A DNA stretch of 43,896 nt, from positions 1 through 43,896 of the forward strand of contig CAYOWP010000010.1 of assembly GCA_964407715.1 (NCBI GenBank), given 5' to 3'. The notes under the pieces are model-generated. The model had not been told where the DNA came from and ran no database searches. It was given only the letters and a program-made list of their open reading frames with translations. The stretch comes from an uncultured archaeon. GTDB lineage: Archaea; EX4484-52; JAADEF01. Shown one piece after another: positions 1,566 to 37,974 of the stretch. The first letter of the stretch is position 1; every line of letters starts with the position of its first letter. The position numbers were made by a program, and so were the translations under genes.

Positions 1566-3170
1566 TCACTCTATATCTAACTCATCGTCATATCCTTGTT
1601 TAAAAGCAGAAAAACTTTCTTTGGTTTCTTCAGTATTGGTGGAGATATGGCTATCTACTAATTCATCAAAGAAATGTACTCTTAATGGGATTGGGAATGG
1701 TGTGAATATAGACGTGATAATTGCCTCTCCTTTATTCAAGCTGGCAATTATTTTATCATCTTTCGATAAGTCCTGAGGTGATGAATTGATTATTATATTT
1801 CTCTCTTTTTGCATCTCAATACCAAGAATTATCTTTGTATTCATATTTGAGAGTATCTCATTCGGAATAAGAGATGGCAATTGGGTTATTGCTATCAATC
1901 CAATATTAAATTTTCTTCCTTCACGTGCAATAATTCCAAATATACTTCCTTCATTGGATAAAAGTACATTATTTAGCACTCGTGGAGCCTCCTCTAAAAC
2001 AATACCTATCTTGGCTTTTACATAAAGCTCATTTCTCTTTTTATAGTATTTGTACTTATCAAAGATACCATGCGAGAGCAAACTCATAACCAAAAGCTCT
2101 TCAGAGGATGTAAGCTCTGATGTATCAAGTACGACAATCTTCCCATTTTCTAAAGATGAAAGTATATCTTCAACAAATCTTTCTCCAACACCTTCTCTAA
2201 AGATGCTGTTATATATTAAGATAGCATTTCCCCTATCATCCTTATTTAATGCTATGTTGAGATGAAACATTAATTTCCTTCTTAACACATCGCATGTCTC
2301 TCGCTTAACTCCTTTCTCAACAAGCTTTTTTATAAACTCCTCATTCATAATCAATTCTTTAATCCATTCCTTATTCCTTTCCTGATATGCCAAATACATT
2401 GCCTGCATCTGAGGCTCACTAAAATTGAACACACTTAAAAAATGATGAGGTTTAAGGAGAGAAATATCAACAAGTAAGCGATGTGAATTTGCAAAAAAGG
2501 ATTTATTTGTTGAGGAATAATATAAAAGATTTGTTTGGGCATTAGGATGTGCAGCCAGGCTGTACTTGGTTGGTGTTACATATTCATCATGAGGATCCAT
2601 AACCAACAATCCTACATTATTTGAATACATCATTTTCCAAAGTAGAACTCGTAAAAGGTTGCTTTTTCCTCTCCCTGTAGTTGCAGCTATTAATATGTGA
2701 TGATTAATAGCCTCGTTGATATCAAAGGGAATAGGTACTTTTAATACCTCACTACCAGATCTCAACATGCCTATATCCAATCCTTCACCAACAATCTCAA
2801 CAATTTTCTTACCAATCTCATCATCTATCTTATATACCTCTGTAAATATCTTAGGCAAGCTCTTCACAAAACTGTAGTCCTTTGAATCAAGTAAAATCTC
2901 AACCAAAGGTTTGGCATATAACACCTCATAGTATCTTTGATCCCTATCATATATCTCAATATCATTATAGGTATCAAGATTATATGCACAGAACTCAATA
3001 TCCTTAGAGCTCATCATACTTCTATGCTCAATATCATATATTTGATATAAAAAGATTTTCCTATCATTAGGTATACAGATTATTTCCCCTATATCCGCTT
3101 TGACGTGAGGTATCTTTCTAATCTCAATTCCCTCCATGCTCCCATGAATCACTCTGCCAATCTTTTTCAT
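1566..3170 (-). CDS. herA: HerA-family (FtsK/HerA) ATPase/DNA translocase
   Basis: N-terminal HAS-barrel-like region, Walker A ATTGRGKS, DPHDEY, Walker B IVLEEA, AREGRKF, TQLP; start moved to ATG 3170 after GGTGA. Confidence 0.85.
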   Translation of the reverse strand: MKKIGRVIHGSMEGIEIRKIPHVKADIGEIICIPNDRKIFLYQIYDIEHRSMMSSKDIEFCAYNLDTYNDIEIYDRDQRYYEVLYAKPLVEILLDSKDYSFVKSLPKIFTEVYKIDDEIGKKIVEIVGEGLDIGMLRSGSEVLKVPIPFDINEAINHHILIAATTGRGKSNLLRVLLWKMMYSNNVGLLVMDPHDEYVTPTKYSLAAHPNAQTNLLYYSSTNKSFFANSHRLLVDISLLKPHHFLSVFNFSEPQMQAMYLAYQERNKEWIKELIMNEEFIKKLVEKGVKRETCDVLRRKLMFHLNIALNKDDRGNAILIYNSIFREGVGERFVEDILSSLENGKIVVLDTSELTSSEELLVMSLLSHGIFDKYKYYKKRNELYVKAKIGIVLEEAPRVLNNVLLSNEGSIFGIIAREGRKFNIGLIAITQLPSLIPNEILSNMNTKIILGIEMQKERNIIINSSPQDLSKDDKIIASLNKGEAIITSIFTPFPIPLRVHFFDELVDSHISTNTEETKESFSAFKQGYDDELDIE

Positions 3171-3178
3171 AAGAAAAA

Positions 3179-4459
3179 TCACCATCCCAATCCTTCATAA
3201 TACCTTGCAAATTTACCTGTAATTGTTTTTCTTCCATCAAATACTATCTTATCCCTATAAAAATTCTCATCTTTATATTCATCCCACTCTGTAACAATAA
3301 CAACAATATCCGCTTTTCTCAAACATTTATCTAACTCTGGGACATATTCAACCTTAACATTCTGAAACTCTCTCTTAGCATTCTCAATAGCAATGGGATC
3401 ATGTGCATATATCTTCTTTACCCCTTCATTTAATAATCTTCTGATTAGCAGCAACCCTCTGCTCTCTCTAATATCATCAGTATTGGGCTTAAAAGCCAAT
3501 CCCAACACAATTATCTCTTTATCCTTGAGTGTTCCCAAATAGGATTTCATTAATAAAATCATCTCATCTATCTGTGTATCATTAATCCTTAATATATCCT
3601 CCCACAATGAGTTATCTACTTCTAATTGTTTAGTGAAGTAAGACAAAGCCTTTACATCCTTAGGAAAACAACTACCACCAAATCCTAATCCTGCATTTAA
3701 GAAATCCCTTCCTATTCTTTTATCCATTCCAACCGCATCCATAACCTCATACACATCTATATTCAATCTCTTTGTTAATCTTCCAACAAGATTAGCAAAA
3801 GAAATCTTCATTGAAAGAAATGCATTGCTTGCATATTTTACAAGTTCAGCTGCTCTTATGCTCATAAAGAGAATCCTTTCAGGTGGTGCAAAATCTTTAT
3901 ACAAGTCATATAAAACCCTTTTAACCTCTTCATCCTCACATCCTATCACGATTCTATCTGGATTTAGCACATCATATAATGCCATTCCCTCCCTCAAAAA
4001 TTCCGGATTCATTGCAAATAAAACGTTCTTATTTTTAGATATCTCATAAATGATTTTCTTTACCACATTTTCGGTTGTTCCCGGTAGTACAGTAGATTTC
4101 ATAACAACAATATGTTTTTTTCCGTTTTTAAGAGCCTCACCAATAGATTTAGATGATTCTTTTATAAACCTCAAATCCACTTTCCCTTCCTCATCAGTAG
4201 GAGTGGGCACACATATGAAAGAGATATCTGTATTATTAACTGCATATTCATAATCCTTAGTTGCTTCAATTAATCCTTTGGCATGAACCTTTTTCATAGC
4301 CTCTTCCAATCCCTCCTCATAGATATGAGGTATTCCTTTATTTATCATATCTATTTTTTTATCGCTTACACCAACAAAGATTACCTTATGCCCTTTTAGA
4401 GCAAAGCCAATTCCTGTTGTTAACCCTACATATCCAGGACCCATAATGCTTATTCTCAT
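3179..4459 (-). CDS. UDP-glucose/GDP-mannose dehydrogenase family protein
   Basis: GPGYVG, ICVPTP, KSTVLPGT, NPEFLREG, GFGGSCFPKD, GLAFKPNTDDIRES; start at ATG 4459 after GGGGTGA. Confidence 0.93.
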   Translation of the reverse strand: MRISIMGPGYVGLTTGIGFALKGHKVIFVGVSDKKIDMINKGIPHIYEEGLEEAMKKVHAKGLIEATKDYEYAVNNTDISFICVPTPTDEEGKVDLRFIKESSKSIGEALKNGKKHIVVMKSTVLPGTTENVVKKIIYEISKNKNVLFAMNPEFLREGMALYDVLNPDRIVIGCEDEEVKRVLYDLYKDFAPPERILFMSIRAAELVKYASNAFLSMKISFANLVGRLTKRLNIDVYEVMDAVGMDKRIGRDFLNAGLGFGGSCFPKDVKALSYFTKQLEVDNSLWEDILRINDTQIDEMILLMKSYLGTLKDKEIIVLGLAFKPNTDDIRESRGLLLIRRLLNEGVKKIYAHDPIAIENAKREFQNVKVEYVPELDKCLRKADIVVIVTEWDEYKDENFYRDKIVFDGRKTITGKFARYYEGLGW

Positions 4460-4473
4460 ATTTATCTCACCCC

Positions 4474-5649
4474 TCATCTTTCCGTAAATATGTCCTCAAA
4501 GGATATCTCCCACATCTTTTTAGCAAGCTTACCATCATACAAATACTTATCAACTTTATCTCTTATCTTCTCCCTTTTATTTCTATGATTTTCAAGGAAA
4601 ACATTGATTTTCTCTATTAAATATTTCTTAAGCTCTCCTGTCAACAACTCCCCCTTTGAATATTTCTCCCTTATCTCCAAGATTTTATCATCATCTTCCT
4701 CAAAAAATATATATAACCATTGATAACTCACATCTATATCCGGATTGCCACCATATCTCCTATGAAGTTCTATTGTTGGCTGCCCACCTGAAAATGCATA
4801 TCTCATTATTTTCCTTTCCACATCATCAGGAGCATCATCAAGAAAAATAGCTCCCTCTGGTTTTGAAGTGCTCATTTTACTGTCAATCCCTGTTAAAGGA
4901 GGCAAAAAGATGCTGTGAATTATTGATGCCTTATGATACCCAAATTTTTCTGCAATATCACGCTGTATTCTCCAATATGGATCTTGATCTATTGCACATG
5001 GTATTAAGCATCTTTTCCTTTCAAAAAAAGTTGGAACTATCTGCAAAGAAGGATAAAAAATAAGACCTATGTTTGTGGTTGTATCAAAACCAAATACTGC
5101 TCGTGCCATAGAGAGGTTTATATGTTTTGAAACCTTTAGTGCTAATGGGTAAAGATGTTTTATATACTCGCTATCCTTAAAGATAAATGTCTTATTTGGA
5201 TCAAAACCTACAGCTGCTATATCCAATATATTCTCATCCGCATATTTCTCGATATCCTTCCATTTAGCATCTTTACTATACACATATTTTTCGTCATCGG
5301 TTATCTCAATATATACATTAACATCAAAAATGTCCTGAAGCCATTTTGTAAATAAAATGGGAAGTAAATGGCCTATATGCATCTTACCTGACGGGCCTCT
5401 ACCTGTATAAAGAAAGAAGCCTTTGCCCTTATCATAATCATCCAAGACCTTATCTAAATCTCTATGAGAAAAAAACACATTTCTTCTTAAAAGAACATGA
5501 AGAGCATTTGCATATTTCAAAAATCTCTTTTTTAAGTTTTCGGTTATATATTGAGTTCCAAACTCCTTAACCAATCTATCATAGTTAACTTTTCCTTCAA
5601 CTTCCCAAGGAGTTATCTTAAAAGAAACATCCTTCTCATTTTTTATCAT
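4474..5649 (-). CDS. trpS: Tryptophanyl-tRNA synthetase (archaeal type)
   Basis: TPWEV, YTGRGPS, HIGH, AIDQDPY, KMSTS, AFSGG. Confidence 0.97.
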   Translation of the reverse strand: MIKNEKDVSFKITPWEVEGKVNYDRLVKEFGTQYITENLKKRFLKYANALHVLLRRNVFFSHRDLDKVLDDYDKGKGFFLYTGRGPSGKMHIGHLLPILFTKWLQDIFDVNVYIEITDDEKYVYSKDAKWKDIEKYADENILDIAAVGFDPNKTFIFKDSEYIKHLYPLALKVSKHINLSMARAVFGFDTTTNIGLIFYPSLQIVPTFFERKRCLIPCAIDQDPYWRIQRDIAEKFGYHKASIIHSIFLPPLTGIDSKMSTSKPEGAIFLDDAPDDVERKIMRYAFSGGQPTIELHRRYGGNPDIDVSYQWLYIFFEEDDDKILEIREKYSKGELLTGELKKYLIEKINVFLENHRNKREKIRDKVDKYLYDGKLAKKMWEISFEDIFTER

Positions 5650-16883: not shown

Positions 16884-16927
16884 AATTTTAAATGGATTTA
16901 AATATTATGTTGATGTGGAAAGATAAC

Positions 16928-18421
16928 ATGATAGATAAGAAAGCACATCTTCTAATATTTTCATTTTTAGTATTTGTTGCTCTACCTCTCTCACATGCAG
17001 CCACCTCTCTCAACTCCTGCACCACAATCTCATCTCCAGGAGTTTATTATTTAACTTCTGACATCACTGATTCAAGCAGCACCTGCTTTACAATCTCTAC
17101 TTCTAACGTAACCTTGGATTGCCAAGGACATGTGATTGATGGTACTCAAGCCTCTGGTAGTTATGGCATATATGCCAGTGGCTCCTTAAGCAACATCACC
17201 ATAAGAAACTGCAAAATCCAAGAGTTTTATTATGGAATTTACTTCTATAATGGTGTTCATGATAGCAAGATAGAGAATGTGATAAGTAATGACAACAATG
17301 ATACTGGTATCTTACTTTCCTCTTCCTCATATAATACACTCTCCAATATCACTGCTAACGATAATGACAACTACTTTGGTATTAAGCTTGATCATTCCCT
17401 ATATAATATACTTCATAACATTATTGCCAATAACAATGGATATGGTGGTATAACACTCGATTATTCATCAAATAATACATTAATAAACGTCACTGCAAAT
17501 AATAACAAAGGCACAGATGGAGGTATCTTTCTTGATTATTCCTCGTATAATACATTAATAAACATCACTGCAAATAATAACACTGTAGGGATATACATTT
17601 GGGACGATTGTGAGAATAACATTCTAGCAAATTCTACTTTTCTATATAACAATTATGGGATATCAATAGGTTCAGGAGGGGGAAATAATATTATTTACAA
17701 TAACATTTTTAATGGTACAAAGGATAGCTTCATCTTTATGGATTTTCCACCCAACCAATGGAACACCTCCCTACAACTTGGCCCAAACATAGTGGGGAGA
17801 CCTTTCATAGGAGGAAATGTGTATGCTACTCCTTCAGGAGATGGATACTCGCAAACTTGCGATGATGCGAATCATGATGGGATATGCGATTCTCCATATA
17901 CATTAGCATCAGGAAATGTGGATTATTATCCTCTAGCGTTATCAAAGACATATCCTTTAAATCCAAAAATCTATGTGGGAGAGCAATTGGCATGGAAATA
18001 TGACGGATTCTTTACTAAAAGCGCAAAGATAGATATAACTCCTTACATACTTAATTATATCAACAATAATTGTTCTGGAACATTACCATGTACAATTCCA
18101 ATAACATATAAAGCAGATTCTCGTGGAGGTATTAATATTGTTGGGGATATCATATATAGAGGATATGTGGTAAGGGTCGAGAACATACTCTTTGAGAATG
18201 CAGGAATAAAGAACATAACTATCTATAGCAATGATTATAAGAAAGTATGCTATACAAATCTCTCAAAGATATATGTTTTACCTCCTGGAGGAATAGGCAT
18301 TTTCAGGATACCTTGCGATATACTGTGCAATAACATAAAAGACATAATAGTTGAAACCACGTGTGGTGTAAAGGATAAGCTATCAAGTCATCCTGCAAGG
18401 GATGAGATTTTGAGGTGTTAA
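16928..18421 (+). CDS. Secreted parallel beta-helix (NosD/CASH-like) surface protein
   Basis: Signal peptide; CTTISSPGVYYLTSD, TLDCQGH.IDG, repeated S.N.L.NITANNN..GI, IGGNVY, DGICD.PY, DYYPL; start after TTTAAATA. Confidence 0.85.
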   Translation: MIDKKAHLLIFSFLVFVALPLSHAATSLNSCTTISSPGVYYLTSDITDSSSTCFTISTSNVTLDCQGHVIDGTQASGSYGIYASGSLSNITIRNCKIQEFYYGIYFYNGVHDSKIENVISNDNNDTGILLSSSSYNTLSNITANDNDNYFGIKLDHSLYNILHNIIANNNGYGGITLDYSSNNTLINVTANNNKGTDGGIFLDYSSYNTLINITANNNTVGIYIWDDCENNILANSTFLYNNYGISIGSGGGNNIIYNNIFNGTKDSFIFMDFPPNQWNTSLQLGPNIVGRPFIGGNVYATPSGDGYSQTCDDANHDGICDSPYTLASGNVDYYPLALSKTYPLNPKIYVGEQLAWKYDGFFTKSAKIDITPYILNYINNNCSGTLPCTIPITYKADSRGGINIVGDIIYRGYVVRVENILFENAGIKNITIYSNDYKKVCYTNLSKIYVLPPGGIGIFRIPCDILCNNIKDIIVETTCGVKDKLSSHPARDEILRC

Positions 18422-33853: not shown

Positions 33854-36403
33854 TTAGCAAATTATTTTCCTTTTTATAACTGGATGTAAAGACAACTTAT
33901 CCTTTACACCACATGTAGTTTCAACTATTATGTCCTCTATATCTGAGCAGAACAAATCCTTACATAAAATCTTAAATATACCTATACCTCCTGGTGGGAG
34001 AATATATTTTTTGCTTAAATTAGTAGAGCATACAGGTTTAAGTTGTTTATTATAAATGGTTATATTTGTAATCTCTGCTGTTTCAGTCATTATATTTTCA
34101 ATAATAACTTTGTATCCTTCCTCTCCATGTCTAAGTATCCTTATACTTCCTCTTGAATCTGCAGTTGCTTTAATAGGCACTGTACATGGAAATACATTTC
34201 CACATTTAGTGGAAATATATTTCTTCACAGCATTCAATATATTAACTAAATAGGTTTGTGTAGTATCATTAAAGAAGCCATTATACTTCCATACCAATTG
34301 CTCTCCCACATAGATTTTTGGATTTAAAGGATATGTTTTTGATAATGCTAAAGGATAATAATCTATGTTTCCTGGTGCTAATGTATATGGAGAATCGCAT
34401 ATTCCATCATGATTAGTGTCATTGCAAGTTTCTGAGTAACCATTTCCTGAAGGCGTAGCATACACATTACCACCAATGAAAGGTCTCCCCACTATGTTTG
34501 GTCCAAGTTGTAGAGTGGTATTCCATTGATTTGATGAAGAGGAAATGTAAATGTTGTTGGTGTTGTTAAGAAGGTTGTTGTAGAAAAGGTTGTTATCTGA
34601 ACTACTAAGATAAATACCATATTGAGCACTGTATTTTATTGTGGAATTTGCTATTATGTTGGAGGAAGAGGAATAGAGACAGATACCACGATTATTACTA
34701 TTGGCAGTGATGTTTGTTAATGTATTAGAGGAAGAAGAACTAAAATAGATGCCTTCTCCAGAGTTGCTATTAGCAATGATGTTTGTTAATGTATTGGACG
34801 AACCACTAAGATAAATACCAATGCCCCCATTGTGATTAGCAGTGATATTTATAATAGTATTAGAAGAAGAGCAAGAAAGCACAAGACCCCAATTGTTATT
34901 ATTAACAAGAATATCTGTTATAGTGTTCAAAGAAGAACGAGAAAAACGGATACCGTATCTATTCTCTTTAGCAGTAATGTTTATTAAAGTGTTAAATGAT
35001 GAATACCAATAAATATAAACCCCATCATAACTATTCTCTTTAGCAGTAATGTTTATTAAAGTGTTAAATGATGAATAAGAATCAAGCCAGATGCCATAAT
35101 CCGGGCTACTCTTAGTGATTATATTCTCTAAGGTATTATATTTAGCATTAGTTAAGTAGATATTTGCAGAATCCCAATCTGTTAATTGACAGTTCTTAAT
35201 TACATGACCATAACCATAATCAATATAAATCCCATAATCAGCATTGTCATCTCCGTCTATTAAATGGTTTTGGCAATCAAATGTTATTTCTGGATATGTA
35301 TAAGGATCAAAATATATACATTTAGATGTGGTGAAGTTTATAATATCAACAGTTAATTGCACTATATCATTGGGAGTTGCATTGTTTTGTATTATAGATG
35401 TACACTCGCTACATGATGAGCAAGTAAATGTTTTTTGAGGTGTTCCTGTATAGATTGGATAGTAATCATATTTATTATTGATGGCATAAGGGTTATCGCA
35501 TATATTGTCATTGTTAGTATCATAGCATCCTTCATGTTCAGCATCATATGCTAACCAGTGATTTCCTATGTTTGTGTAGTTCCATTTTGTTGTTGATGAT
35601 TCATCTGAGATTTTATATTTTGATGATAATAGATTGTTATAAAAGAGATTGTTATCACCGGATGTTATTCTTATATCATTGATTTTATTTCTTATTATGG
35701 TATTGTTTTTGAAGAGATTATTATCTGAATTCTTTAGGTAAATACCTTGAGCATTGAATGTGATTGTTGTGGATGTGATGTTGTTATCTGAACCATCTTC
35801 GAGCCCAAGACCATATTGATTATTATGTGAGATTGTGGAATTTGCTATGGTATTGAAGGAAGAGGAAGAATAACAAAAATATACACCATAATTGTTATTA
35901 TTAGCAGTGATATTTACAAAAATGTTAAAGGAAGAACCATCAATACGAATACCTGTATCACCATTGTTATTGGCAATAATGTTTGTTAAGGTGTTGGAGG
36001 ATGAGGAAGAGAGACGGATGCCATAATAATTGTTGCTATTACTCACAACATTCTCTATCTTGCTATCATGTACTCCATCACGAAGATAAATTCCATGATA
36101 AAATTCTTGGATTTTGCAGTTTCTTATGGTGATGTTGCTTAAGGAGCCGCTTGCATATATCCCATAACTACCAGAGGCTTTAGTACCATCAATCACATGC
36201 CATTGGCAATCCAAGGTTACATCAGAAGAGGAGATAGTAAAGCAAGTGCTGCTTGAATCAGTGATGTCAGAAGTTAAATAATAAACTCCTGGAGATGAGA
36301 TGGTGGTGCAGGAGTTGAGAGAGGTTGCTGCGTAGGTTAAAGTTATCAAGTTTATAAAACTAAAAAACATCCATAGCAATACTTTATGGTTTTTGATTTT
36401 CAT
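33854..36403 (-). CDS. Secreted tandem parallel beta-helix (NosD/CASH-like) surface protein; paralogue of 16928-18421
   Basis: Signal peptide, two beta-helix domains each ending in ICD.PY/DYYP, shared C-terminal region; GAGGTG RBS. Confidence 0.87.
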   Translation of the reverse strand: MKIKNHKVLLWMFFSFINLITLTYAATSLNSCTTISSPGVYYLTSDITDSSSTCFTISSSDVTLDCQWHVIDGTKASGSYGIYASGSLSNITIRNCKIQEFYHGIYLRDGVHDSKIENVVSNSNNYYGIRLSSSSSNTLTNIIANNNGDTGIRIDGSSFNIFVNITANNNNYGVYFCYSSSSFNTIANSTISHNNQYGLGLEDGSDNNITSTTITFNAQGIYLKNSDNNLFKNNTIIRNKINDIRITSGDNNLFYNNLLSSKYKISDESSTTKWNYTNIGNHWLAYDAEHEGCYDTNNDNICDNPYAINNKYDYYPIYTGTPQKTFTCSSCSECTSIIQNNATPNDIVQLTVDIINFTTSKCIYFDPYTYPEITFDCQNHLIDGDDNADYGIYIDYGYGHVIKNCQLTDWDSANIYLTNAKYNTLENIITKSSPDYGIWLDSYSSFNTLINITAKENSYDGVYIYWYSSFNTLINITAKENRYGIRFSRSSLNTITDILVNNNNWGLVLSCSSSNTIINITANHNGGIGIYLSGSSNTLTNIIANSNSGEGIYFSSSSSNTLTNITANSNNRGICLYSSSSNIIANSTIKYSAQYGIYLSSSDNNLFYNNLLNNTNNIYISSSSNQWNTTLQLGPNIVGRPFIGGNVYATPSGNGYSETCNDTNHDGICDSPYTLAPGNIDYYPLALSKTYPLNPKIYVGEQLVWKYNGFFNDTTQTYLVNILNAVKKYISTKCGNVFPCTVPIKATADSRGSIRILRHGEEGYKVIIENIMTETAEITNITIYNKQLKPVCSTNLSKKYILPPGGIGIFKILCKDLFCSDIEDIIVETTCGVKDKLSLHPVIKRKIIC
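34959..35077. repeat. Exact 47-bp intragenic direct repeat, 72-bp period
   Basis: 34959-35005 equals 35031-35077, encoding YSSFNTLINITAKEN twice. Confidence 0.9.
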
Positions 36404-36424
36404 ATATACACCTCATACTGAAAT

Positions 36425-36754
36425 TCAATAAAATGATGGTATGACTTCAAGTAAAATATCAAAGGCTATATCTTCATTCTTTCTAACCGAAAAATTATAA
36501 GTTTCAATATCATGAGGATAACTGAAATTAAATGTATGATCTATAGGTGTGAGATTTCTATTTTGAATATCTTTTATTGATATTCCTACAAGATCACAAT
36601 TCTCAGGAAGATCTCTTTTTTCTGCAGATTTAAATAAAGAGATGCCATAATCTTTAAGCCATGTGAAATAGAGAATACTTAAGGTAACAACTCCTACAAG
36701 TAATATAACAGATGTAAGACTAATAGAAATTGCTTTTCTTTTATTCATATCCAT
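36425..36754 (-). CDS. Short archaeal type IV pilin-like protein (class III signal peptide)
   Basis: KRKA|ISISLTSVILLVGVVTLSILYFTW resembles the (K/R)(G/A)|IS...VLLI...W prepilin motif; only 109 aa. Confidence 0.7.
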   Translation of the reverse strand: MDMNKRKAISISLTSVILLVGVVTLSILYFTWLKDYGISLFKSAEKRDLPENCDLVGISIKDIQNRNLTPIDHTFNFSYPHDIETYNFSVRKNEDIAFDILLEVIPSFY

Positions 36755-36970: not shown

Positions 36971-37052
36971 ATGACAATAAATTAATCACATTACATATAT
37001 TTTTAAAATCTTTTGAGAATAATCTTATTTAGAGATGTTTAAGGGTGAACTT

Positions 37053-37475
37053 ATGAAAAGAGATATAAAAAAAGCAATATCGAAATCATGTTATTCTTTT
37101 GGAGAATTTCTACCCATTTTGTTGGGCGTTTTAATGCTCATAAGCTTAGCTATTACTGCAATACCTAAAGAAGTATATTCTCATCTCTTTAAAGGAAATT
37201 ATTTATTGGATCCAATAATTGGTAGTGCCTTGGGTAGTGTATTTGCAGGAAATCCAATAACAAGCTACATTATCGGAGGAGAGTTATTGAATCAAGGAGT
37301 AAGTTTGGTAGCAGTAACAGCTTTTATAGTTGCATGGGTTACTGTAGGTATAGCTCAATTACCAGCAGAGATGTTGATTTTTGGAAAGAAATTTGCTATT
37401 GTTAGAAACCTATTAAGTTTCTTATTTTCTATATTGATAGCAATAATTGCGGCTATTATATTGTGTGTGGTGTAG
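37053..37475 (+). CDS. Predicted permease half (DUF318/ArsP-like)
   Basis: GSALGSVFAGNPITSY..GGELL..GVS, WVTVG..QLPAE...G..FA..RN. Confidence 0.8.
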   Translation: MKRDIKKAISKSCYSFGEFLPILLGVLMLISLAITAIPKEVYSHLFKGNYLLDPIIGSALGSVFAGNPITSYIIGGELLNQGVSLVAVTAFIVAWVTVGIAQLPAEMLIFGKKFAIVRNLLSFLFSILIAIIAAIILCVV

Positions 37476-37479
37476 GAAT

Positions 37480-37974
37480 ATGCAAAATAAAAATAAGAGA
37501 TCCGGATGGATATTTTTTGGAATTATGATGCTTATTTATTTATGTTTGTTTTTTATTGATAGAGTTTTCTTTATCAAAGTCTTCATGAATCTTATTCACA
37601 TGTTAACTAGGATTATTCCTATTTTTGTTTTGATTTTTATTATAATGATAATTATAAATTATTATGTTACACCAAAGATGATAGCAAAATATCTGAGTAA
37701 GAATTCTGGTATAAAAAAATGGATCATAGCCATTGTTAGCGGAATAATATCAACAGGACCTGTTTATATGTGGTATTCTGTATTAAAAGAATTAAAGGAA
37801 AAAGGGGTAAGCTATGGATTTATAGCAGTTTTTCTTTATAATCGTGCAATAAAACCTCCTTTAATTCCTCTAATGATTTATTATTTCGGCTTGAAGTTTA
37901 CTATTGTTTTAACTCTTCTAACAATATTTTTTTCAATATTGGAGGGAACAATAATTGAAAAGATAATGAGGTGA
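37480..37974 (+). CDS. Predicted permease half (DUF318/ArsP-like)
   Basis: I.KYL...SG, GIISTGP.YMWY..L.EL..KG, FLYNRAIK.PL.P.M..YFG. Confidence 0.8.
   Translation: MQNKNKRSGWIFFGIMMLIYLCLFFIDRVFFIKVFMNLIHMLTRIIPIFVLIFIIMIIINYYVTPKMIAKYLSKNSGIKKWIIAIVSGIISTGPVYMWYSVLKELKEKGVSYGFIAVFLYNRAIKPPLIPLMIYYFGLKFTIVLTLLTIFFSILEGTIIEKIMR

Follow-up and report, generated by a model that had tools for sequence, protein, structure and literature searches.

The window analyzed here, a 43,896-nucleotide (nt) stretch of DNA that makes up contig C10 (CAYOWP010000010.1) of an archaeal genome (G000; 898 kb in 16 contigs, 92% complete, G+C content of ~32%), carries two adjacent genes on the minus strand that we interpret, from sequence comparison and structure models, as probably encoding a single type IV pilin-like surface protein in two chains. 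The first, which we call the stub gene, encodes a pilin-like protein that stops shortly after its N-terminal helix; the second, the head gene, encodes a much larger beta-helix protein that ends in a docking region of two blocks. An earlier interpretation made from the letters alone (the sequence-only reading) had described a 109-amino-acid (aa) prepilin-like open reading frame (ORF) with a Cys and a strand-like tail and, 21 nt farther on, across two TGA stops, a gene with its own GAGGTG ribosome binding site and Sec signal; all of these elements were present where it had placed them (Table 1).

Table 1. Coordinates of the stub gene, the head gene, and related features in the window
Feature	Position	Strand	Description
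Stub gene	36425..36754	-	109 aa; archaeal type IV pilin-like, without most of the pilin globular domain
Class III-type leader and hydrophobic helix	36614..36754	-	Leader, residues 1-8; helix to about residue 47
Stub ectodomain	36428..36613	-	Residues 48-109; Cys53, one strand after Cys53, and two or three more strands
Cys53 codon	36596-36598	-	Single, invariant Cys of the stub
Spacer	36404..36424	-	21 nt; second in-frame TGA; GAGGTG at 36409-36414; head ATG at 36403
Head gene	33854..36403	-	849 aa; Sec signal, two NosD-type right-handed beta-helix modules, and 163-aa C-terminal docking region
Sec-type signal peptide	36329..36403	-	Residues 1-25; basic n-region, 15-residue h-region, putative site TYA/A (...TLTYA/ATS)
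Two beta-helix modules	34346..36328	-	Residues 26-686; a Cys/Asp-rich cap ends each
Docking block 1	34118..34345	-	Head residues 687-762 (docking-region residues 1-76); two invariant Cys
Docking block 2	33857..34117	-	Head residues 763-849; pilin-like beta-sandwich with the end ..TTCG..C; five invariant Cys
Unpaired paralogous head	16892..18421	+	509 aa; probable start at 16928; one beta-helix module; docking region at 17939-18418
Junction coverage	36272-36433 and 36404-36900; 36302-36730		Run 1 contigs (first two intervals); run 2 contig (third interval)

The N-terminus of the stub consists of a basic leader (...KRKA) followed by ~24 hydrophobic residues, a pattern shared with the ordinary pilins of the same genome (129 to 184 aa), and processing would be expected after KA. 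About 60 residues remain after the helix. A profile built from four stubs was run with HMMER against 1.84 billion representative proteins and gave 15 hits at an E value of up to 0.001. These included both stub types of the genome and four other short stub-like proteins (107 to 124 aa); 8 of the 15 were 73 to 175 aa long with class III-type N-termini, and at least 2 of these (145 and 175 aa) had a C-terminal block like the last block of the head. One further hit, of 1,133 aa, was judged spurious because it is a repeat protein without a pilin N-terminus. Within the archaeal class, for which only 42 species genomes were available, the stub profile matched pilin N-termini in 41, mostly those of ordinary pilins. 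Word-indexed searches were less productive: at near lengths the 109-aa stub recovered only itself (1 of 8 candidates), and at longer lengths the six-row stub alignment matched 0 of 8,000 candidates at an E value of up to 0.001, a negative that is weak evidence.

The head matched PF05048 (NosD; 212 bits, E value of 6.5e-63, four stretches) and PF13229 (Beta_helix; 159 bits, 8.4e-47), and TIGR03804 repeats were found in 12 stretches. We rejected assignment to NosD proper, as the TIGR04247 score of 99.5 bits lay far below the cut-off of 300, and classify the head as a surface beta-helix protein. It has neither a transmembrane segment nor any other visible anchor of its own. Its leader is of a type common to all six head N-termini in the genome and is presumably cleaved. 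Pfam at an E value of up to 1 returned NosD, Beta_helix, and a weak DUF2624 match only, with no family of the PilY1 type, and the whole head had 0 matches among PDB chain sequences at an E value of up to 0.001. A word-indexed search with the docking region recovered four proteins among 198 candidates (itself, two paralogs, and a head from the related genome G003), so the beta-helix head family appears to be narrow. The repeats themselves (34300-36100) were covered in fragmented contigs of two public runs by sequence with many joints that skip or repeat 66 to 1,352 nt, at a depth that was several-fold higher, an observation that fits collapsed or variable repeat units common to paralogous heads. 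These contigs carry no information on expression, and no RNA run was listed for this stretch.

We then asked how regularly stubs and heads occur together. Searches by blastp of 3,613 ORFs of at least 40 aa and by tblastn of the whole genome yielded exactly four stub genes. The three outside the window, on contigs C3, C14, and C2, encode near-identical 110-aa copies (type 2; leader ...TKKA, likewise followed by a hydrophobic stretch) that are 34 to 36% identical to the window stub. Downstream of each of the four, at a distance of 9 to 21 nt and in the same orientation, lies a beta-helix gene with a Sec leader; on C14 and C2 the contig ends before the head does, leaving at least 924 and 560 aa open, respectively. 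A pair was also present in G003, which belongs to another genus of the same family, where 15 nt separate a 5'-truncated stub from a 678-aa beta-helix head that ends in the same tail, and this pair gives independent support for the association. In a third family (G021), a 5'-truncated beta-helix head with the same tail was found. Finally, in G013, a member of another family (genus g4), a 131-aa stub on contig C125 overlaps by 8 nt a 573-aa head that has a Sec leader, beta-propeller repeats instead of a beta-helix, and two C-terminal blocks, and a second stub gene comes next. The tandem of stub, head, and stub there (C125:67-2565) has neighbors that overlap by a few nucleotides, and the contig ends inside or just after the second stub; it is possible that stubs and heads alternate over longer stretches.

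As the sequence-only reading had suggested doing, heads and anchors were counted across the genome. With the N-terminal 86 aa of the head as the tblastn query, six head starts were found, compared with four stubs. This count leaves out a fragment on contig C9, since C9 (262-43957) is a 100% identical reverse-complement copy of C8:7161-50856, both outside the window; some 44 kb of the assembly's 898 kb are thus redundant, and gene counts need correcting for it. Two of the six heads have no adjacent stub. One is the 509-aa paralog in the window, which is preceded by a 195-aa, cytoplasmic-looking ORF that is not a pilin; the window heads are 49% identical over 487 residues and 60% identical over the last 163 aa, in agreement with the earlier claim that they share both end blocks and that no pilin gene lies beside the paralog. 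The other is on C8, where the head is preceded by an antiporter-like membrane protein and interrupted by a scaffold gap.

These unpaired heads bear on a reading in which stub and head are independent neighbors that are only cotranscribed: an ordinary minor pilin or small membrane protein next to an unrelated secreted enzyme or adhesin, with the shared C-terminus being a surface sorting or attachment domain that resembles pilin sandwiches by chance. Besides the two heads without a stub, the frequency of beta-helix and adhesin-like genes in archaeal type IV filament (T4F) loci, as indicated in the accessible text of a recent survey (PMC13705601), would be in keeping with it. The pairing argues the other way: it holds for four of four stubs in the genome, recurs in G003, and recurs again with a different kind of head in G013. 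Moreover, stub and head show homology to opposite ends of single-chain pilins (see below), and control complexes involving the same parts scored only 0.00 to 0.01, although 7 of 44 blindly chosen neighbors passed the same complex test in the tool's own trial. We consider mere adjacency quite improbable.

The junction itself was examined with respect to another alternative, namely, that the locus is a broken or recoded single gene, either a nested pilin cut by nonsense mutations or a reading frame whose stops are read through into one polypeptide. The stub-spacer-head junction was without differences in contigs from both of the public vent-metagenome runs used, although run 1 may be the sample from which the window derives. 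Stub and head share a reading frame in three pair types, whose spacers measure 21 nt (window), 9 nt (type 2), and 15 nt (G003), as expected of a single cut gene; this agreement probably arose by chance, for which the odds are about 1 in 9, or was left over from a fission event. However, the head gene comes with a Shine-Dalgarno sequence and a start of its own, and it encodes a canonical Sec leader that would have the wrong topology inside a fusion. Two TGA codons stand at the window spacer and three TAA codons at that of G003, and these extra stops weigh against readthrough; the G013 genes overlap out of frame. TGA is an ordinary stop in this genome, as it terminates 123 of the 413 ORFs of at least 250 aa (TAA, 218; TAG, 72), and the arrangement is conserved across genera. 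TGA recoding or readthrough was therefore rejected on the grounds of the second stops in the spacers, the normal use of TGA as a terminator, and the out-of-frame overlap in G013, and a broken or recoded gene as a whole strikes us as highly improbable.

Evidence for two parts of one protein came from relatives in which the parts are joined. We found nested single-chain pilins of 502, 582, 646, 879, 1,071, and 1,406 aa, plus an N-terminally truncated ORF of 1,245 aa, in G003, G004 (from the genus of the window), G013, G015, and G032, and such proteins appear to be widespread in this archaeal class. Their order is a class III leader, a helix, a Cys-bearing first strand, more strands, large inserts, and two C-terminal blocks ending in ..TxCG..C. 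The inserts include an RCC1 propeller with DUF2341 (PF25390, 365 bits; PF10102, 54 bits), regions judged LamG-like by eye, and SBBP-type propellers. At the N-terminal end, the stubs aligned with the nested pilins with an hhalign probability of 97.6% (E value of 3.1e-12, residues 9 to 67), and the 879-aa nested pilin of G003 matched positions 3 to 101 of the 111 positions in the stub profile. At the C-terminal end, the docking regions aligned with those of the nested pilins with a probability of 95.4% (E value of 1.9e-8), over columns 10 to 157 and hence over both blocks. One such case lies within genus g4: residues 3 to 117 of the 582-aa fused pilin of G015 matched residues 15 to 127 of the 131-aa G013 stub (47% identity, E value of 4e-23), and residues 135 to 582 of the same protein matched residues 91 to 573 of the G013 head, up to its last residue (29% identity, E value of 3e-42). 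The stub and head thus tile the 582-aa pilin, which means that one architecture occurs both fused and split in close relatives, with the cut at the start of the insert.

The sequence-only reading had also taken the last block of the head to be pilin-like, and this was borne out in three ways, one of them the hhalign comparison just described. Second, the docking region matched a 148-aa pilin of G002, a relative in the same family (E value of 1.9e-5, 38% identity, docking-region residues 78 to 152), and the seven-row docking profile matched it more strongly (E value of 1.4e-6, docking positions 58 to 151 against pilin positions 48 to 144); this pilin gene adjoins a T2SSE ATPase gene and a second pilin gene. 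Third, a fold search against 48,161 PDB chains, for which only the block 2 part of a low-confidence single-chain model was used, gave as its best hit 8fk7_A, the archaeal type IV pilin of Pyrobaculum calidifontis (Z of 7.9, root mean square deviation of 2.5 Å, 80 residues aligned at 19% identity, model residues 75 to 163 against chain residues 61 to 143). The next hit had a Z of 6.4, and three other archaeal pilin or FlaF/G entries had Z values of 5.0 to 5.6. Since values below 8 may reflect a common arrangement of strands, the fold hit agrees with the sequence evidence and is no proof.

Structure models were then made of each part alone and of the two together. Modeled by itself with AlphaFold2, the docking region had a mean predicted local distance difference test (pLDDT) score of 50.7 and eight strands; block 1 stayed below 50, and block 2 reached 63 to 79 per 10-residue block. 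The stub alone (six-row alignment) had a helix at residues 3 to 47 and 10-residue means of 52 to 88 over residues 1 to 50, with residues 52 to 109 below 50. For the complex, the head tail (seven-row alignment) and stub residues 9 to 109 (six-row alignment) were supplied unpaired. The interface score (interaction prediction score from aligned errors [ipSAE]) was 0.63, 0.62, and 0.48 in three runs (median, 0.62), compared with 0.01 for the best of three controls; in calibration, of 157 solved complexes, 116 attained the mark used for this score, compared with 2 of 215 mismatched pairs, a guide that is rough here because our own alignments were used. The runs shared at least 69% of their contacts, which numbered 258 to 301, and partner pLDDT was at least 64. 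Confidence in each chain rose with its proper partner: the docking region reached 72 to 78 with the stub versus 51 to 56 with unrelated partners, and the stub reached 65 to 71 with the head versus 55 with an unrelated chain.

The predicted interface covered stub residues 52 and 53, 55 to 92, and 96 to 109 and, on the docking region, mainly residues 52 to 90, with additional contacts in 1 to 48 and 139 to 161. Antiparallel pairs were predicted between docking residues 55 to 60 and stub residues 85 to 89 and between docking residues 66 to 70 and stub residues 73 to 77, with expected errors of 0.6 to 1.0 Å. Interdigitated strands of this kind had been anticipated by the sequence-only reading, which would have been refuted had each protein folded as a complete domain alone. 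Neither part folded confidently alone (stub residues 52 to 109 and block 1 below 50), a finding that the shallow alignments weaken.

Formally, the two proteins could instead dock without completing each other's fold. The end of the head would then be an autonomous pair of pilin-like domains (immunoglobulin-like or CARDB-like), and the stub would be a small but complete minor pilin; the head would bind the stub, a pilus shaft, or a surface layer by way of an ordinary surface or of one donated strand. Several results are compatible with such an arrangement: the profile alignment spans the first strand of the 148-aa pilin as well, the docking region alone still showed eight strands with block 2 at 63 to 79, the globular part of the 148-aa pilin weakly resembles CARDB (E value of 0.0032), and short stub-like pilins of 107 to 124 aa occur elsewhere. 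Yet the predicted interface is very large, with its 258 to 301 contacts taking in nearly all of stub residues 52 to 109 and block 1, the very parts that stayed below a pLDDT of 50 when modeled alone. In genus g4, a stub and a head together account for the whole length of the fused protein, and the cysteines of stub and block 2 have the 1-plus-5 pattern of the fused pilins. Docking between complete domains is, in our estimation, unlikely.

That cysteine pattern also suggests how two co-folded chains might be held together. Each of two fused pilins, of 582 and 502 aa, has exactly six Cys in total, of which one lies on the first strand and the other five lie in the last block, so that, if all six are oxidized, the N-terminal part must be disulfide bonded to the C-terminal block. 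In the stubs of G000 and G013 there is just one Cys, conserved without exception among the aligned stubs (the 5'-truncated G003 stub has a second), and the head docking regions have five invariant Cys in block 2 and two in block 1. The one Cys of the stub and the five of block 2 thus reproduce the fused-pilin pattern, and an interchain disulfide is likely by homology. Stub residues 52 and 53 and docking residues 143 to 146 (TTCG) both lie in the confident interface, though they were not listed as a touching pair. An argument from Cys parity over whole proteins was dropped, as the counts in the heads (24, 14, 16, 19, and 8) show no clean parity.

On the basis of these comparisons and models, we propose that the pair probably forms a modular surface protein of the type IV pilin kind from two chains, a class III stub and a beta-helix head exported by Sec, which would co-fold once outside the cell. 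The stub would enter the membrane by means of its class III leader and hydrophobic helix and would expose only about 60 residues, which hold the single Cys, the first strand of the pilin fold, and a few strands beyond it. The 849-aa head would be exported separately by Sec, and its last 163 residues would fold together with the stub ectodomain on the outer side of the membrane, with the block 1 strands interleaving with the C-terminal strands of the stub and block 2 completing the pilin beta-sandwich, as the complex models suggest. A disulfide between C53 of the stub and a Cys of block 2, for which C831 of the head (in TTCG) is the likely partner, would probably staple the chains. The product would be equivalent to a nested modular pilin of related archaea with an adhesin-like beta-helix insert, the function of which would presumably be adhesive, and the pilin helix would hold it on the cell as a membrane-anchored surface protein. 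That the product might be incorporated into a type IV pilus, as a minor or tip subunit, is more speculative. Taken together, a predicted interface, fused relatives, and a pilin-like last block leave the sequence-only reading supported by both the comparisons and the models.

Several observations nevertheless weigh against co-folding of a split pilin, and we gather them here. The complex score is the model's own confidence on shallow, unpaired alignments of six to seven rows, and the strand topology and the disulfide partner were read from a contact list rather than from coordinates. The low confidence of the single parts may merely reflect the same shallow alignments. The profile alignment with the 148-aa pilin extends to that protein's Cys-bearing first strand, so the head may own an equivalent strand, with Ser in place of Cys, and block 2 may be self-sufficient. 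The lack of clean parity in whole-head Cys counts deprives the disulfide of one possible argument. Because the type 2 stubs are recent near-identical copies, the four-of-four pairing does not amount to four independent observations. The expectation of fused homologs held in that nested pilins were found, one of them tiled by a split pair, but not in that none has a beta-helix insert, either in the profile search of 1.84 billion proteins or in the longer-length search. Pfam PF07790 (Pilin_N) did not match the stub at an E value of up to 1, although this family was also below threshold on the ordinary pilins of the genome (16.9 to 20.4 bits against a cut-off of 25.2). The sole candidate for a class III peptidase is a weak full-length match to PF01478 (Peptidase_A24; 20.8 to 23.6 bits against a cut-off of 26.5) in a genome that is 92% complete. 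Finally, any link between a stub-head pair and an ATPase locus depends on an unproven join between two contigs, C14 and C13.

With regard to that link, T2SSE ATPases are encoded at three loci in the genome (117 to 120 bits), together with T2SSF platform proteins (59 to 67 bits) and several ordinary pilins. At C13:1-5137, the 3' end of a head gene (15-1085) is followed by a T2SSE ATPase gene (1593-3167) and two T2SSF genes (3177-4034 and 4046-5137), with a small opposite-strand ORF between the head end and the ATPase gene. On C14 the head is cut short within a repeat unit, and the first residues on C13 match the continuation of that unit. A C14-C13 join is plausible but unproven, and a stub-head-ATPase-platform locus across the two contigs is accordingly possible but unproven.

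The docking regions differ among heads in a way that relates to stub type. That of the 509-aa head is 98% identical to that on C13 and 76% identical to those on C3 and C8, whereas that of the paired window head is only 57 to 60% identical to the others, which are 76 to 100% alike within the genome. The window stub, itself 34 to 36% identical to the other stubs, therefore goes with the most divergent docking region, that is, stub and docking types diverge together. At the same time, the near-identical type 2 stubs precede heads whose docking regions differ (that of C3 is 76% identical to that of C13), which fits one stub type serving several heads. Since the docking region is conserved, the beta-helix is variable, and six heads outnumber four stubs, one stub type can probably carry alternative heads. 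The same genome encodes a further protein with these ends: C4:2-2812 (+) holds a 5'-truncated surface protein of at least 936 aa with the same two end blocks (E value of 4e-5 to the head tail) and, by eye, a DUF2341-like start and a Gly-rich region. As its N-terminus is lost at the contig edge, a fused and a split version of it are indistinguishable.

Each element of the proposed arrangement has a counterpart in known systems. In Geobacter sulfurreducens, the major pilin is made as two gene products, PilA-N (61 aa) and PilA-C (104 aa), according to the accessible text of PMC11046646. The pair described here resembles that one in combining an N-terminal helix protein with a separately made globular part, a comparison of layout and not of sequence homology; adjacency and split homology fit the Geobacter type, and assembly is predicted by the models (ipSAE of 0.62 versus 0.01). 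It differs in that the Geobacter system, as described there, is bacterial and has a small globular partner, whereas the partner here is a Sec-exported beta-helix protein of 509 to more than 924 aa of which only the last 163 aa are pilin. It differs also in that the stub here keeps part of the globular domain and has several alternative partners.

A second parallel is the PilC/PilY1 adhesin, which, in the portion of a preprint available to us, docks on the minor pilin PilK by C-terminal beta-strand augmentation that stabilizes PilK, in systems from Neisseria, Pseudomonas, and Myxococcus (bioRxiv 10.64898/2026.09.18.752573). Here, too, a large exported nonpilin protein would be shown on a pilin via its C-terminus, so that the head resembles PilY1 in working but not in family membership. 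On that same partial account, the PilY1 plug consists of 12 residues on a complete pilin, unlike the docking region, which has 163 residues, is homologous to pilins, and is predicted to contribute several strands.

The nested layout likewise has precedents. Modular pilins are widespread in bacteria, and nested examples, going by the accessible sections of PMC8179133, include ComZ of Thermus thermophilus, with a beta-solenoid in the pilin sheet, and GspK, with an alpha-domain insert. The likeness to ComZ and GspK is one of sequence layout (pilin N-terminal part, module, pilin C-terminal part), and the ComZ insert is also a beta-solenoid; unlike these bacterial proteins, which are single chains in that account, the window version comprises two genes with stops between them and two export signals. 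Among archaeal type IV pilins and class III surface proteins, the stub and head find likeness in the leader-helix pattern, in the block 2 sandwich (model Z of 7.9 against the P. calidifontis pilin 8fk7 and of 5.6 against the Sulfolobus Aap pilin 8q30), and in the ATPase and platform genes. Known archaeal pilins and bindosome proteins differ in being single chains, and for none of them has completion by a partner exported through Sec been described. Proteins that are adhesin-like or beta-helical are mentioned for archaeal T4F loci in a 2026 survey, the accessible text of which describes no split or two-gene pilin and does not use the term "modular" (PMC13705601). Neither the term "split pilin" nor a two-gene archaeal pilin was found in the literature searched, which did not extend to subscription literature. 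As nested layout, two-gene pilins, and adhesin display are each known, we regard a split pilin with a Sec-exported beta-helix partner as a variant and not as a new category.

Elsewhere in the window, genes for RadA, an RPA-like protein, and topoisomerase VI lie near the pair. Two overlapping ORFs for small membrane proteins, at 37035-37475 (+) and 37447-37974 (+), each show a weak similarity, below the cut-off, to PF03773 (ArsP_1, predicted permease) over its N-terminal half and may be a pair of half-size permease genes.

If the proposed pairing is correct, it shows how a genome of less than 1 Mb could mount adhesin-like modules that are large and evolve fast on a pilin-type anchor and yet not encode that anchor anew each time. 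The pair would then be a clear example from nature of fold complementation outside the cell, with one partner exported by the class III route and the other by Sec. More tentatively, and at a confidence that we would place somewhat short of even, this lineage of small-genome archaea may repeatedly toggle modular pilins between fused and split forms, with a disulfide-locked reassembly outside the cell, and the stub may be a universal socket for exchangeable beta-helix or beta-propeller heads, possibly for host attachment. A practical annotation rule follows, namely, to look for short pilin genes with, next downstream, the gene of a protein exported by Sec whose end consists of two blocks with ..TxCG..C; this rule would explain many of the large secreted proteins without a visible anchor in such genomes. 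If true, the arrangement might also bear on how ultra-small symbionts attach to their hosts.

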